From a virus (Duplodnaviria > Caudoviricetes): a stretch of 64,000 bases of DNA. The stretch's first letter is position 1. Every line of letters begins with the position of its first letter. The position numbers and the translations under genes are program-made. The stretch lies in IMG/VR virus record IMGVR_UViG_3300033555_000001, positions 1 through 64,000 of that record. One strand, written 5' to 3'. The notes under the pieces were generated by a model. It saw nothing but the letters and a program-made list of their open reading frames with translations, did no database searches and had not been told where the DNA came from. Positions 2,531-12,571 of this stretch are shown here, in pieces.

Positions 2531-2602
2531 ATGTCTGCCGATGGATACGGTTTTGGCCCTGCGAAGGCTGAACAGCAGGTTCGATTCCTGCCAGACGTAC
2601 CA
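2531..2602 (+). tRNA. tRNA-Arg(GCG), non-canonical 72-nt form
   Basis: Acceptor ATGTCTG/CAGACGT, arm TGGCC-CTGCGAA-GGCTG, TTCGATT, ACCA. The D hairpin directly follows the acceptor stem. Confidence 0.75.
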
Positions 2603-3131: not shown

Positions 3132-4777
3132 TATGCCACCTCTTCAATGTCTACTTGCAGGGTGCCGGTGGTATTAGCGCCAGCAAAGTCTGCATCGGTG
3201 AGGAAAAGAAAACCACCGTTTGGATTGTAAGTACCATCTGCGTTGGTGATGGTAAAGCCTGCAAAGAACTGTGAAGTATCAGTACGACGCGTCAGCACAG
3301 AAGATCCAGTATAGCTTGCGAGTGTTTTGGTAAAGTCAGTAACGTTAGTACCAATCGCTGCTGTTTGCGAGAATGCTGCAAAGACAAGAGTTCGACGAAC
3401 AAAACCACCAACAACATAAGAGGCACCAGCGGTAATTGTAGAACCAGCTACATTTGCAATATTCGTTAAAACAAGCGTGTTAAACGTTTGTGATCCATCT
3501 ACATCTGCATCAGTGATTCTGAGCGTACGTGAGTAAACTCCGGCTGAGAACGTCCATGCACCCTGAAAAGTTCCGCTTGAAGCAACTAGAGTTGGCAGCG
3601 CATTCAGCAGTTGATTTGCGGTAATACGTACCGTGTAGTCCTTACCCGCTGGTGTTGATGTAAGTCGGGTTGGATTTCCAACAATTGAAATTGCTGCTGT
3701 TGGAGCCGTATTTGCAATTGAAATAGCTGCTGTACTAACCGTAACTGCGGCGTTCGAAGTTTTTGTTGCGGTAATTGTATAGTTCTGAACTCCAATTACA
3801 TAGCCACCGCTGACACGCGTTACGGTCTTTGTTGCACCATAGACTGATGGGTCAGTTACTGACAGATCTGCTGAAGAAGTGTATGTAACCGTATCTGCAC
3901 TAGTAACAGCAGCGGTAACAGTCGAGGACTCTGTGCCCTTCAGCGCAGATTGACCAGTTGGGTAAGTAATAACACGAGCTGCAATGCCCGGATAAGTCTG
4001 ATTCAGTGTAACTGTATTAGTGGTAAGGACGGTGGAACCAAAGGTTCCAAGAGCGTTGCGCGCCCGAACTGATGCACTTTGAACGCCAGATGCCGCGCCC
4101 ACAATAAAGGTGCCTGTTAAAGTTTTAAATCCGGTACCACCTGAATCTGTTGCTCCCAGCGTTAGCGAAGAAATAGATTTTGCTGCACCGCTGACTATAA
4201 CTTCAGCGTACGTTGCCGAGTTAGCTACAACACCAGAGATTGGCAGCACGTCATTTTGCTTTACCTCTGTTTGAGATCCTGGAAGCACTCCAATTGTGGC
4301 AGTCTGTACGGCTGGGCCTGCTTCAGCAACGGTGATTGTTGCAGTAGCTGTTGCATTTGTGTTTGACGTAATTGTGACAACAGAGTTCACAGTAATAATT
4401 AAGTCTGCAAAACCAGAGAAGAAGCGACGGTCAAACTGGTCTTCTGAAATGGTACCGGTAATTGGTCCACCGGCTTGTGGTGGCTCAGTTGTTACGGTAA
4501 CAGTTGGAGAATAAAAAGCTGATCCACCCTCTGCAATAAATGAGACACGAACGTTTTGTGTATCAGTCGTGCCGTTAATAATGACCCTGTTTGCTGGAAT
4601 AGTGTTGGGAACAAATTGCTTATTGCCAACAATACCCGTTGATGTTGGGGAAATGTCTGTGATGAACACACCCCCTACAATGGCACCCGAGATCACCTGA
4701 GCATCAACATATCTCTTTGTTGCTATTTCTTGAGGCAGTGTTGGATCAGTAGTCGCGGTGCTTTGATAAATCTTCAT
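3131..4777 (-). CDS. Thr/Ser/Gly-rich beta-sandwich (Ig-like) virion protein
   Basis: 548 aa with surface/structural composition; TATAAATA on the minus strand at 4826-4833 upstream. Confidence 0.6.
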   Translation of the reverse strand: MKIYQSTATTDPTLPQEIATKRYVDAQVISGAIVGGVFITDISPTSTGIVGNKQFVPNTIPANRVIINGTTDTQNVRVSFIAEGGSAFYSPTVTVTTEPPQAGGPITGTISEDQFDRRFFSGFADLIITVNSVVTITSNTNATATATITVAEAGPAVQTATIGVLPGSQTEVKQNDVLPISGVVANSATYAEVIVSGAAKSISSLTLGATDSGGTGFKTLTGTFIVGAASGVQSASVRARNALGTFGSTVLTTNTVTLNQTYPGIAARVITYPTGQSALKGTESSTVTAAVTSADTVTYTSSADLSVTDPSVYGATKTVTRVSGGYVIGVQNYTITATKTSNAAVTVSTAAISIANTAPTAAISIVGNPTRLTSTPAGKDYTVRITANQLLNALPTLVASSGTFQGAWTFSAGVYSRTLRITDADVDGSQTFNTLVLTNIANVAGSTITAGASYVVGGFVRRTLVFAAFSQTAAIGTNVTDFTKTLASYTGSSVLTRRTDTSQFFAGFTITNADGTYNPNGGFLFLTDADFAGANTTGTLQVDIEEVA

Positions 4778-5030
4778 TTGTCAAGCTCCTGTTAATATAA
4801 AATACATCTTTAAGATACAAATCCATATTTATAAGTGCTGCCATGCCCCGTTTTGACGCGGGTGAAAATAAATGGCGGTATAACATTAACATCCCTCTGC
4901 TTACGGATTAAGCTCGAGCGCTTCGAACGCTTGATGGGTGGTTTGACTCCATCCAGAGGGGCCAAGTTTCAATGGTGCGTTTCGCGTGTTTGGTATTGTA
5001 AATACTTCATATTACCAAAGGGGAGTAACA

Positions 5031-7472: not shown

Positions 7473-7695
7473 TTTTTGTGAGTTAGCACTAGTGGAAGTG
7501 CACTGCCCCCATACGGCAGAACGAAATCAGTTCGAACCTGATACTCACAACCAAACATATTGCCCTTTAGTTATAATATCACTTCAGTCAGAAAACAAGG
7601 TTGTTCTTTTATAATCCTTTTTTCGACGGTTGCTAAATAGATATTGCAGGAACAAACTGTCGTTGACAGTCTCCTAACTACTCAAAGGACATAAA

Positions 7696-8569: not shown

Positions 8570-8641
8570 ACCTCGTCTGTGGGATACAGTATTGGGACTT
8601 CTAATCCTGAATGAGAGGTTCGACTCCTCTACGAGGTCCCA
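8570..8641 (+). tRNA. tRNA-Arg(TCT), non-canonical 72-nt form
   Basis: Acceptor ACCTCGT/ACGAGGT, loop CTTCTAA, TTCGACT, CCA. The D hairpin CTGT-GGGAT-ACAG directly follows the acceptor. Confidence 0.75.
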
Positions 8642-10499: not shown

Positions 10500-11513
10500 A
10501 TGAATCGCATTGGTTTTGCCTGCAAATGGATCGACAGCGCGTCTCAGGTTAACGCAATTGGCGCCAATGATCCGGCAAAAGAACTTAATCCCTGCACTAC
10601 TACAATTACTTGGCTTGCAAAGCAAACGCGCGAAGTGGCTGAGCAAAAGCTGTTTAGCCTCATGAAGTACAATATTGAGGCCACGCGTCGGTTAGTAGAG
10701 CGAGTTGGCCAGCAGCCTGCGCACTTGCGCATGGTGCGGCTCAGCAGCGATTTGCTCATGGCGTACACACACGTAGACCACCGTGATTGGTGGCAGCGCC
10801 CTGACGTACAGGACTATTTGGAAAAGAATTTTAGAGTTGTTGGCGATTTAGCACGAGCACTAGACGTGCGTCTTAGCATGCACCCTGGCCAGTTCTGCGT
10901 ACTAGCAAGTGTCAGCGATGGAATTATTGAGCGCTCAATTGAAGAATTTGAGTACCACACGGACATGGCCCGATTTATGGGGTACGGCTCAAAGTTCCAA
11001 GACATGAAAATCAACGTCCACATTAGTGGCAAGCGTGGCCCACAGGGTATCAAGGACGCACTCCAGCGACTGTCGCCAGAGGCGCGCAATATGATTACCA
11101 TTGAAAACGACGAGATGAGCTGGGGTGTTGATGCAAGCCTGGCGCTGGCAGATGACCTGGCCTTGGTGCTTGATATTCATCATCACTGGATTCGCACGGG
11201 TGAATACATCCAACCAACTGATTCGCGCTTTCAGGCCATGATCGAATCCTGGCGTGGTGTGCAGCCCGTAATTCACTACAGCGTAAGCAGGGAAGATGTG
11301 TTGCCTGATCATGTTACGACCGTGCTGCCCGACCACGCGGCCCTGCTAAAAACAGGTCACAATAAATCCAAGCTCAGGGCGCACAGCGATTTTTACTGGA
11401 ACACTGCAGTAAGCGATTGGGCAGGCAGCTTCCAGCCCTATGCAGATATTATGTGCGAATGTAAATCCAAGAATTTAGGAAGTGCAGCTTTTGCAGCACA
11501 AGTTTATAAGTAA
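10500..11513 (+). CDS. uvsE: UV damage endonuclease
   Basis: RIGFACK, RLSSD, RLSMHPGQF, TIENDE, LDIHHHW, HYS and RAHSD motifs. Confidence 0.92.
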   Translation: MNRIGFACKWIDSASQVNAIGANDPAKELNPCTTTITWLAKQTREVAEQKLFSLMKYNIEATRRLVERVGQQPAHLRMVRLSSDLLMAYTHVDHRDWWQRPDVQDYLEKNFRVVGDLARALDVRLSMHPGQFCVLASVSDGIIERSIEEFEYHTDMARFMGYGSKFQDMKINVHISGKRGPQGIKDALQRLSPEARNMITIENDEMSWGVDASLALADDLALVLDIHHHWIRTGEYIQPTDSRFQAMIESWRGVQPVIHYSVSREDVLPDHVTTVLPDHAALLKTGHNKSKLRAHSDFYWNTAVSDWAGSFQPYADIMCECKSKNLGSAAFAAQVYK

Positions 11514-11519
11514 AACAAC

Positions 11520-11596
11520 ACGTCTGTAGCTCAATTGGACAGAGCAGCGGTCTTCTAAACCGCAGGTTGTGGATTCAAATTCCGCCAGACGTACCA
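11520..11596 (+). tRNA. tRNA-Arg(TCT), canonical
   Basis: TAGCTCAATTGGACAGAGC D arm, arm GCGGT-CTTCTAA-ACCGC, ACCA. Confidence 0.9.
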
Positions 11597-11698: not shown

Positions 11699-12571
11699 AT
11701 GAAATTTTTCAAAAAAATATTGGCGTTAATGCTGGCACTTCCATTTGTCGGAGTGTCCCTGGCTACTGATCGCCCGCTTTATACAATTTACACTGCGTCC
11801 GCAAAGGGCACGTACTACCAATTTGGCCTTGATATTCAACGCGCCTGTCCTCATCTAAAAATTCAAGTAATCAACACACACGGCTCCCTAGACAACGTTA
11901 ATAATCTGATTCAGCCATCAGTGATGAGGACTGGTCACCAGTTTGCTCTTGTCCAAAATGATGCGCTTGCTGCAATGACTGAAGATGAACCGCGGCTTAA
12001 GGCGCTGATCACTCCAGCAATGCGGATGTACAGCGAGGAAATCACCGTGCTTGTTAGCAAGAGCTCTAATATTCAATCGCTGAGCGATCTTGCCGGGAAA
12101 CGAGTAGCAGTTGGAGTTGTAGGATCTGGTACCTGGTTTTCGGCTGCCGCCATCAAGTCTCAGCTTGGCATTACATGGGCTTCGATTGAAATACCAGCAG
12201 AAGAAAGTTTACTTGGTGTGCTGTCCGGGGATATTGACGCGCTTATTACCGTAAGCGGCCACCCAGTAAAATTTTTTAGTGAGCTTGGAGCCAGCATGAA
12301 GGGTCACGTAAAGCTGCTTAACATGAGTGGCGTTGAGCTGGACCAAATGTATAAAACCGCGGTGCTCCCAAAAAACACGTATCTTTGGCAAGACCGCGCC
12401 GTAGAATTACGCTCCACGCGCTCCACTATGATTACTCCTTCATCAACTCCTGAATCGGCCACACGCGCCCTTATTCAGTGCATCAGCTCGAAACAAGAAG
12501 AGCTGCGAGCATGGGGACACCCAAAGTGGCGCACCATGCAGTTTCCAGCAGTATCAACAAAGACTAAGTAG
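11699..12571 (+). CDS. TAXI-family TRAP solute-binding protein
   Basis: Signal peptide; GTYYQFG, THGSLDNVNNL, ALVQND, SLSDLAGKRVAVGxxGSGT motifs. Confidence 0.85.
   Translation: MKFFKKILALMLALPFVGVSLATDRPLYTIYTASAKGTYYQFGLDIQRACPHLKIQVINTHGSLDNVNNLIQPSVMRTGHQFALVQNDALAAMTEDEPRLKALITPAMRMYSEEITVLVSKSSNIQSLSDLAGKRVAVGVVGSGTWFSAAAIKSQLGITWASIEIPAEESLLGVLSGDIDALITVSGHPVKFFSELGASMKGHVKLLNMSGVELDQMYKTAVLPKNTYLWQDRAVELRSTRSTMITPSSTPESATRALIQCISSKQEELRAWGHPKWRTMQFPAVSTKTK

Follow-up and report, generated by a model that had tools for sequence, protein, structure and literature searches.

Two tRNA-Arg genes near the start of a large phage genome are only 72 nt long and seem to place a small D hairpin directly after the acceptor stem. 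They raise the question of whether such genes are working tRNAs of a distinct structural class or ordinary tRNA genes that are decaying or wrongly drawn. To our knowledge, elongator tRNAs of the bacterial type are regarded as having an almost uniform core, the accepted exceptions being tRNA-Sec, tRNA-Pyl, allo-tRNAs and the tRNAs of organelles. An initial reading of the sequence alone (hereafter, the sequence-only reading) had proposed a distinct and selected tRNA-Arg class, and this proposal is borne out by 57 distinct sequences in which the D hairpin is kept by compensatory changes.

Compact tRNA-Arg genes in the phage tRNA cluster

The DNA that we analyzed (the window) is a 64-kb stretch that forms the start of a 310,728-bp IMG/VR record with an estimated completeness of 87 per cent. 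ARAGORN finds 25 tRNA genes in the whole phage genome, arranged in two clusters at 1.7–11.6 kb and 276–288 kb, and 14 of them lie in the window. For the two short tRNA-Arg genes, ARAGORN agrees with the sequence-only reading on the length of 72 nt, and the sequences agree with it on the small D hairpin, with GGAU in its loop, that immediately follows a perfect 7-bp acceptor stem. Both genes are real, but the count of two was too low: a structural scan recovered a third gene, which is not called by ARAGORN and had been missed. All three are on the plus strand, and in each the 72 nt include an encoded CCA.

The tRNA-Arg(GCG) gene (positions 2531–2602; ARAGORN) has its acceptor stem at 2531–2537 and 2592–2598, its D hairpin at 2538–2550, its anticodon arm at 2553–2571 with the anticodon at 2561–2563, its T arm at 2575–2591, and a discriminator A at 2599. 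The D hairpin reads CCG(A)-UGGAU-(A)CGG, so that the fourth D-stem pair is an A·A mismatch, and two adjacent G·U pairs lie within the anticodon stem. The gene belongs to a tight same-strand run of tRNA genes, 6 nt downstream of tRNA-Asp and 8 nt upstream of tRNA-Lys. The newly found tRNA-Arg(UCG) gene (4893–4964) has its D hairpin at 4900–4912 (CUUA-CGGAU-UAAG), its anticodon at 4923–4925, and a discriminator G; in its T loop, UUUGACU, the pairing partner of G19 is a U instead of a C. The tRNA-Arg(UCU) gene (8570–8641; ARAGORN) has its D hairpin at 8577–8589 (CUGU-GGGAU-ACAG), its anticodon arm at 8592–8610 with the anticodon at 8600–8602, its T arm at 8614–8630, and at 8638 a discriminator C, which is neither A nor G.

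The minimum free energy fold of the UCG gene is the structure of the class (z = −2.8). For the GCG and UCU genes, RNAfold sets a hairpin directly on the acceptor stem, with unremarkable folding z-scores, and ARAGORN, which starts the anticodon of both at nucleotide 31, draws a forced connector of one to two bases and a 3-bp, mostly wobble D stem.

A canonical tRNA-Arg(UCU) gene of 77 nt (11520–11596, plus strand; ARAGORN) lies outside the compact class and coexists with it, as the sequence-only reading had stated. Its connector is U8-N9, its D stem lies at tRNA positions 10–13/22–25, and its D loop has 9 nt; the anticodon stem has 5 bp and the variable loop 5 nt. In the acceptor stem it is almost identical to the compact GCG gene. 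On the plus strand, an open reading frame for a UvdE-type UV endonuclease precedes it (10500–11513; Pfam E = 4e-36), and one for an NMT1-like, phosphonate-binding-like protein follows it (11699–12571; Pfam E = 6.5e-26). A Pfam search of the genes located between the phage tRNAs returned only these UvdE-like and NMT1-like proteins and no tRNA-related protein, and a scan for promoters and terminators gave counts equal to those in shuffled sequence.

Several other tRNA genes of this phage also have unusual features. A plus-strand stretch at 1854–1926 scores 36 bits on the general tRNA model RF00005 and is absent from the default ARAGORN list; with a lowered threshold, ARAGORN adds Phe(gaa) at 1854–1929 and Glu(ttc) at about 1935–2006, both on the plus strand in the first cluster. 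The genes that ARAGORN calls as tRNA-Phe (2099–2172), Gln(ttg) (2369–2443), Asp (2449–2524), and Met (7477–7553), all on the plus strand, have no match to RF00005 at E ≤ 1. In the ARAGORN drawings, Phe and Asp have 8-bp acceptor stems, Asp has a 3-bp D stem, and Gln(ttg) has a one-base connector and a terminal U·U. Judging from these four genes, the phage may carry further non-standard tRNAs. Beyond the window, at genome positions 276500–276575 (plus strand), a tRNA gene with the amber-suppressor anticodon CUA, which ARAGORN labels Pyl, scores 70 bits on RF00005.

Helices of the compact layout

The 5′ half of the layout consists of a 7-bp acceptor stem, no connector, and a 4-bp D stem closed by a 5-nt N-G-G-A-U loop; two unpaired bases then lead to an anticodon stem of 6 bp, which is followed by a variable loop of 3 nt and a normal T arm. 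In every class member the connector has zero bases, the D stem begins at nucleotide 8, and the D loop has 5 nt. Members were sought with a spacing pattern derived from the two window genes noticed at the outset, and then with two wider patterns combined with a structural filter. The wider scan, which covered 1.67 Mb of fetched phage DNA and the whole genome of the phage itself, yielded 24 distinct sequences of the exact layout. In all, we collected 57 distinct sequences of the compact layout from 21 other IMG/VR phage contigs and from bacterial genomes, the window genes included. Base pairing was assessed in two alignments: A1, which holds the 24 distinct phage sequences (one of them the window gene at 4893), and A2, which holds 33 phage and bacterial sequences, none of them from the window.

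The tested pairs were those of the acceptor stem (columns 1–7/62–68), the D stem (8–11/17–20), the anticodon stem (23–28/36–41), and the T stem (45–49/57–61). In A1, 97.3 per cent of the cells are paired, and A2 gives the same figures. Both sides change in 21 of the 22 pairs of A1, shuffled alignments never reached the observed covariation, and pairing falls to 33–52 per cent when the partner columns are shifted by one to three positions. The acceptor stem (98.8 per cent paired in A1) and the T stem (100 per cent) both covary. The D stem is paired in 95–96 per cent of cells in A1 and A2, a percentage that is partly circular because the member filter demanded at least three of the four D-stem pairs (the anticodon was left free). 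That circularity does not touch the diverse pair types of the D stem, pair 23–41 (for which the filter did not select), the ranking of column pairs by mutual information, or a covariance model built without the window genes.

The D-stem pairs take, in stem order, the types CG/GC/UG, CG/UA/AU, AU/GC/UA/CG/UG, and GC/AU/CG/UA; at pair 10–18 in A1, for example, AU occurs 11 times, GC 8 times, UA 3 times, and CG and UG once each. The sequence-only reading had left three bases unpaired before the anticodon stem. Two of these are indeed free, but the third pairs with the first base of the variable loop: pair 23–41 is formed in 23 of 24 sequences in A1 (UA 10, CG 8, GC 3, and UG 2) and in 32 of 33 in A2, with 11–13 double changes. 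Because these columns pair, the anticodon stem grows to 6 bp, the connector in front of it shrinks to 2 nt, and 3 nt are left for the variable loop. Across the 57 distinct members, the 15 column pairs with the highest mutual information are exactly those of the proposed helices.

The sequence-only reading had also allowed for refolding into a canonical cloverleaf. In the register that this would need (a 2-base connector and a 3-bp D stem, of the type drawn by ARAGORN), only 44 per cent of cells are paired, compared with 95.8 per cent for the compact D stem in A1, and the class therefore does not refold into the standard cloverleaf. A further extension of the anticodon stem to 7 bp was also rejected, since the extra pair 22–42 occurs at chance level (14 of 34).

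Two pairs of columns outside the helices are correlated. The D loop begins with a base that is often the same pyrimidine as base 6 of the T loop (columns 12/55; 2542 and 2585 in the GCG gene; CC in 15 and UU in 8 of 34), and the first base of the connector before the anticodon stem correlates with the last base of the variable loop (columns 21/44; 2551 and 2574 in the GCG gene; CG in 10 and AA in 7). Both column pairs may reflect tertiary contacts within the compact core, at a correlation too weak for a firmer statement.

Detection by covariance models follows the same division between compact and canonical genes. In a search of the window with RF00005, whose gathering threshold is 29 bits, none of the three compact genes gives a match at E ≤ 1, and the canonical gene at 11520 scores 69.5 bits. 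A covariance model built on A1 (R1) scores the GCG, UCG, and UCU genes at 71, 75.3, and 75.7 bits, respectively; across the 310-kb genome, these are exactly the three matches of at least 71 bits, and the next match has 35 bits. The model built on A2 (R2), and hence without the window genes, scores the UCU gene at 71.7 bits, the UCG gene at 70.2 bits, and the GCG gene at 66.3 bits, with E-values between about 1e-13 and 1e-12 for the 64-kb window. R2 gives its next match there only 33 bits, and the canonical gene at 11520 reaches only 27.1 bits. The match of the three genes to the class is far beyond chance. When the tRNA cluster was compared with deposited phage records by megablast and blastn, nothing was returned for the Arg genes, and blastn searches of two other class members returned nothing either.

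Carriers among phages and bacteria

Lack of conservation, which the sequence-only reading had named as evidence against a class, is not what we found, since class members occur on 21 other phage contigs and in the Kribbella family of bacteria. The carrier contigs span 8 to 462 kb, and many are jumbo-sized. One phage (contig L002) carries a 72-nt tRNA-Arg(ACG) of the same shape in the gene order Gln(UUG)-Asp-Arg, which matches the window and makes the gene syntenic with that at 2531. Several phages carry compact sets: the same phage (as G003) has ACG and CCU; another, G005, has CCU, ACG, and CCG; and a third, the 416-kb G004, has GCG, UCU, UCG, a second GCG, and CCU, some of them with a longer variable loop.

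Related shapes also occur outside the exact layout. On a small GC-rich contig (L072; IMGVR_UViG_3300006056_000082), the minus strand at about 1378–2700 carries Thr(CGU), Thr(GGU), and Met(CAU) tRNA genes without a connector and with 4-nt D loops. A D arm without a connector is therefore not, in every phage, strictly a feature of arginine tRNAs, whereas the exact layout with the N-G-G-A-N loop is. Three tRNA-Arg genes on other contigs (L003, 7279–7352, plus strand; L119, 1024–1094, minus strand; L089, about 3364–3432, plus strand) have one connector base, a 4-bp D stem, and two to three bases before the anticodon stem, and they may be transitional between the canonical and the compact classes.

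The class is not phage-specific. With R2, one chromosomal compact copy was found in 73 of 101 Kribbella-family genomes, at 59–80 bits. A species-level scan that used one genome per prokaryotic species matched at least 120 loci, and at least 41 of them are of the compact class. Among the matches listed, most bacterial members are tRNA-Arg(CCG) genes on Kribbella chromosomes, and single cases come from Thermopolyspora, Bryobacteraceae, Granulosicoccaceae, Gloeobacterales, Myxococcaceae, Anaeromyxobacteraceae, and Limnoglobus assemblies, among others. R2, applied to about 33 candidates per genome in a thin sample of 150 further Actinomycetota genomes, yielded no member, which points to a patchy distribution at most.

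The member on the chromosome of Kribbella sp. CA-294648 (locus L186, 2565–2633) exemplifies the bacterial genes of this family, which lack an encoded CCA. The differences in the stems among species are compensatory changes, and the Kribbella member has no RF00005 match at E ≤ 0.01. In a complete Kribbella genome, a canonical Arg(CCG) gene is present in addition to the compact one, which rules out the compact copy as the sole reader of CGG. In two complete genomes, the compact gene occupies a syntenic metabolic locus next to genes for an FAD-linked oxidase, a U32-like protein, and a LarA-N-like protein; a fucosidase gene is also among the Kribbella neighbors. When the neighbors in these two genomes were checked for prophage genes and for tRNA-dependent enzymes, only ordinary metabolic genes were found. 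The long vertical retention of the gene in cells with ordinary translation machinery is a strong argument that the class provides a usable tRNA.

Arginine identity, structural parallels, and predicted function

All anticodons of the 57 distinct members are arginine anticodons: CCG in 34 members, UCU in 9, ACG in 8, and CCU, GCG, and UCG in 2 each. The view of the sequence-only reading that Arg(GCG) is uncommon thus holds even within the class, and the syntenic gene of phage L002 carries ACG. In bacteria, the determinants of arginine identity are A20, C35, U/G36, and A/G73, of which A20 is the strongest for the Escherichia coli ArgRS (PMC9976931). The D loop of the class reads N-G-G-A-(U/C/A), with the GG-A invariant in 57 of 57 members, those of the window included, and we equate the A with A20 from its position after G18 G19. 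C35 is likewise invariant, and position 36 holds either G or U. As the discriminator, 52 of 57 members have A or G (the GCG, UCG, and UCU genes of the window have A, G, and C, respectively). The anticodon loop reads C-U-NNN-A-A in 56 of 57 members, with U33 invariant, and the T loop reads UUCGANU, also in 56 of 57. A search of the phage for an ArgRS gene (PF00750) found none, and the ArgRS of the host is therefore the probable charging enzyme.

In a crude set of 255 long open reading frames, arginine is encoded by CGC (30 per cent), AGA (19 per cent), CGU (18 per cent), CGA (14 per cent), CGG (12 per cent), and AGG (7 per cent). By the wobble rules, GCG reads CGC and CGU, UCG reads CGA and CGG, and UCU reads AGA and AGG; the three genes are therefore predicted to supply a full six-codon arginine set in compact shape. 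Among the phage tRNAs, the compact genes are the only readers of CGN codons. The compact UCU gene, in turn, is redundant on paper, because the canonical Arg(UCU) gene is present.

Two known kinds of tRNA depart from the cloverleaf in a similar way. In mammalian mitochondrial tRNA-Ser(UCN), a type I mt-tRNA, the connector is a single base, the D loop is small, the anticodon stem has 6 bp, and the variable region has 3 nt; this tRNA keeps G18 G19 and T-Psi-C, is L-shaped, and is active in translation (PMC7609411). The compact tRNA-Arg class resembles it in the short connector, the small D loop, the 6-bp anticodon stem, the 3-nt variable region, and the elbow motifs, but has no connector base instead of one, and two bases between the D and anticodon stems. 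Moreover, tRNA-Ser(UCN) is an organelle serine tRNA with its own synthetase and factors, whereas the class has arginine identity and is found in bacteria and phages with standard machinery, and we see no sign of common descent. tRNA-Pyl has a connector of 0–1 nt (none in Methanomethylophilus alvus), a D loop of 4–5 nt, a 6-bp anticodon stem, and a 3-nt variable loop, and D. hafniense tRNA-Pyl, as seen in its crystal structure, has a compact core and a normal L shape despite the loss of U8:A14 (PMC7609411, PMC11764691). The class shares with tRNA-Pyl the compact core, the missing connector (as in M. alvus), the 6-bp anticodon stem, and the 3-nt variable loop. However, tRNA-Pyl has neither G18 G19 nor T-Psi-C, and it decodes UAG and receives its amino acid from PylRS, whereas the class keeps the GG and UUCGA motifs and carries six different arginine anticodons, with no UGA or CUA among them, and the ArgRS determinants. 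Because of these anticodons and determinants, and of its phage and bacterial carriers, the class belongs to neither the tRNA-Ser(UCN) nor the tRNA-Pyl family.

With canonical tRNA-Arg, the class has in common A20, C35, G/U36, the C-U-NNN-A-A loop, the 7-bp acceptor stem, and the 5-bp T stem with its 7-nt loop; canonical D loops range from 7 to 11 nt, compared to 5 nt in the class. In allo-tRNAs, the acceptor/T branch is 8/4 or 9/3 and the variable arm is long (PMC5389517); the 7/5 branch and the 3-nt variable loop of the class rule out membership in that group. Our literature search found no paper that describes a compact tRNA-Arg class in bacteria or phages. The conserved compact-core tRNA-Arg family is real and apparently undescribed.

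We consider it likely that the three window genes encode working elongator tRNA-Arg of this class. Since the class shares the four cloverleaf departures of tRNA-Ser(UCN) and tRNA-Pyl and keeps the elbow motifs, it most likely works as they do. The 7 + 5-bp acceptor/T branch and the invariant GG (corresponding to G18 G19) would, with the T loop, build the usual elbow. By analogy with tRNA-Pyl and mitochondrial tRNA-Ser(UCN), the shortened core would pack in the same manner and give an L shape; the invariant GG, the T loop, and the correlated columns 12/55 hint, indirectly, at such a fold. The L-shaped molecule would be accepted by RNase P, EF-Tu, and the ribosome, and the host ArgRS would charge it through the A after GG (corresponding to A20), C35, G/U36, and the discriminator. 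On this reading, the family diversified by changes of the anticodon, moves among large phages, and became fixed in at least one bacterial lineage.

Why the compact body is selected is a separate matter. The sequence-only reading had suggested resistance to arginine-specific tRNases of the colicin D type, and, in a broader form, the arginine set, with a core unlike that of host tRNA-Arg, could go unrecognized by a nuclease, modifying toxin, or phage-made factor directed at the canonical tRNA-Arg body, so that translation would continue when host tRNA-Arg is destroyed. Such counter-defence concerns only the selective reason for the shape and is compatible with functional tRNAs. It fits a published hypothesis that phage tRNAs resist anticodon nucleases, including colicin D, although that hypothesis places the escape in the anticodon loop (PMC10264068). 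In several large phages, whole Arg isoacceptor sets are compact instead of lone genes, which suggests an arginine-specific pressure on the tRNA body, and the exact layout is seen only with Arg anticodons. Against this, the anticodon loop, where colicin D-type enzymes cut, is canonical in 56 of 57 members; the class is stable on Kribbella-family chromosomes beside a canonical copy; the phage also keeps a canonical Arg(UCU); and no nuclease, immunity, or defence gene is linked to the compact genes, either among the genes between the phage tRNAs or at the two Kribbella loci. The canonical loop and the stable life in bacteria therefore lower the standing of the nuclease-resistance idea, and we think counter-defence improbable as the reason for the shape. 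The corresponding scenario of an escape based on the tRNA body, from a nuclease or modifying toxin of a host or competitor or from a phage factor that silences host tRNA-Arg, in which large phages carry a complete, insulated arginine-decoding kit (GCG, UCG, and UCU here, similar sets in other jumbo phages) and Kribbella captured one phage gene as a protected spare, is doubtful to a similar degree. If true, it would mean that the tRNA arms race has an escape route through the tRNA body and not through the anticodon loop.

Some special tRNA-Gly species serve cell-wall synthesis, and a charged compact tRNA-Arg could likewise be used off the ribosome, as an arginyl donor for a tRNA-dependent transferase or as a regulatory or decoy RNA. 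The redundancy of the extra copy in Kribbella and, for UCU, in the phage would agree with such a use, and the altered core could reduce use by the ribosome and EF-Tu. Yet the T loop and the anticodon loop are standard, as is the acceptor/T branch, whose 12 bp EF-Tu reads. The members, moreover, span all Arg anticodons and, in phages, track full codon coverage, neither of which a donor or decoy needs, and the neighboring genes in Kribbella are not aminoacyl-tRNA-dependent enzymes. We regard a non-ribosomal role as very improbable. It is scarcely credible that these are decaying or falsely called tRNA genes that fold as normal cloverleaves or have no function: RF00005 is blind to them, the D stem drawn by ARAGORN is weak, and two of the z-scores are unremarkable, but the canonical-style D stem is paired in 44 per cent of cells against 95–96 per cent (partly circular, as stated) for the compact hairpin, all four helices covary, the GG-A, C35, and T-loop positions are invariant, and the class is conserved over 21 other phage contigs and 73 Kribbella-family genomes.

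Given that RF00005 misses the compact genes and that ARAGORN misses one of the three here, phage arginine tRNAs may be undercounted in analyses of tRNA repertoires and codon coverage. If the compact genes are working elongator tRNAs, they would extend the tRNAs with a compact core like those of tRNA-Pyl and mitochondrial tRNA-Ser(UCN) by a family that serves a standard amino acid, arginine. Their occurrence in large phages, where they often form complete isoacceptor sets, and their fixation in a bacterial family that can be cultured make this directly testable. Since ArgRS reads A20 in the D loop, the class would also be a natural test of the minimal core that ArgRS needs, and it may offer a compact scaffold for tRNA engineering.
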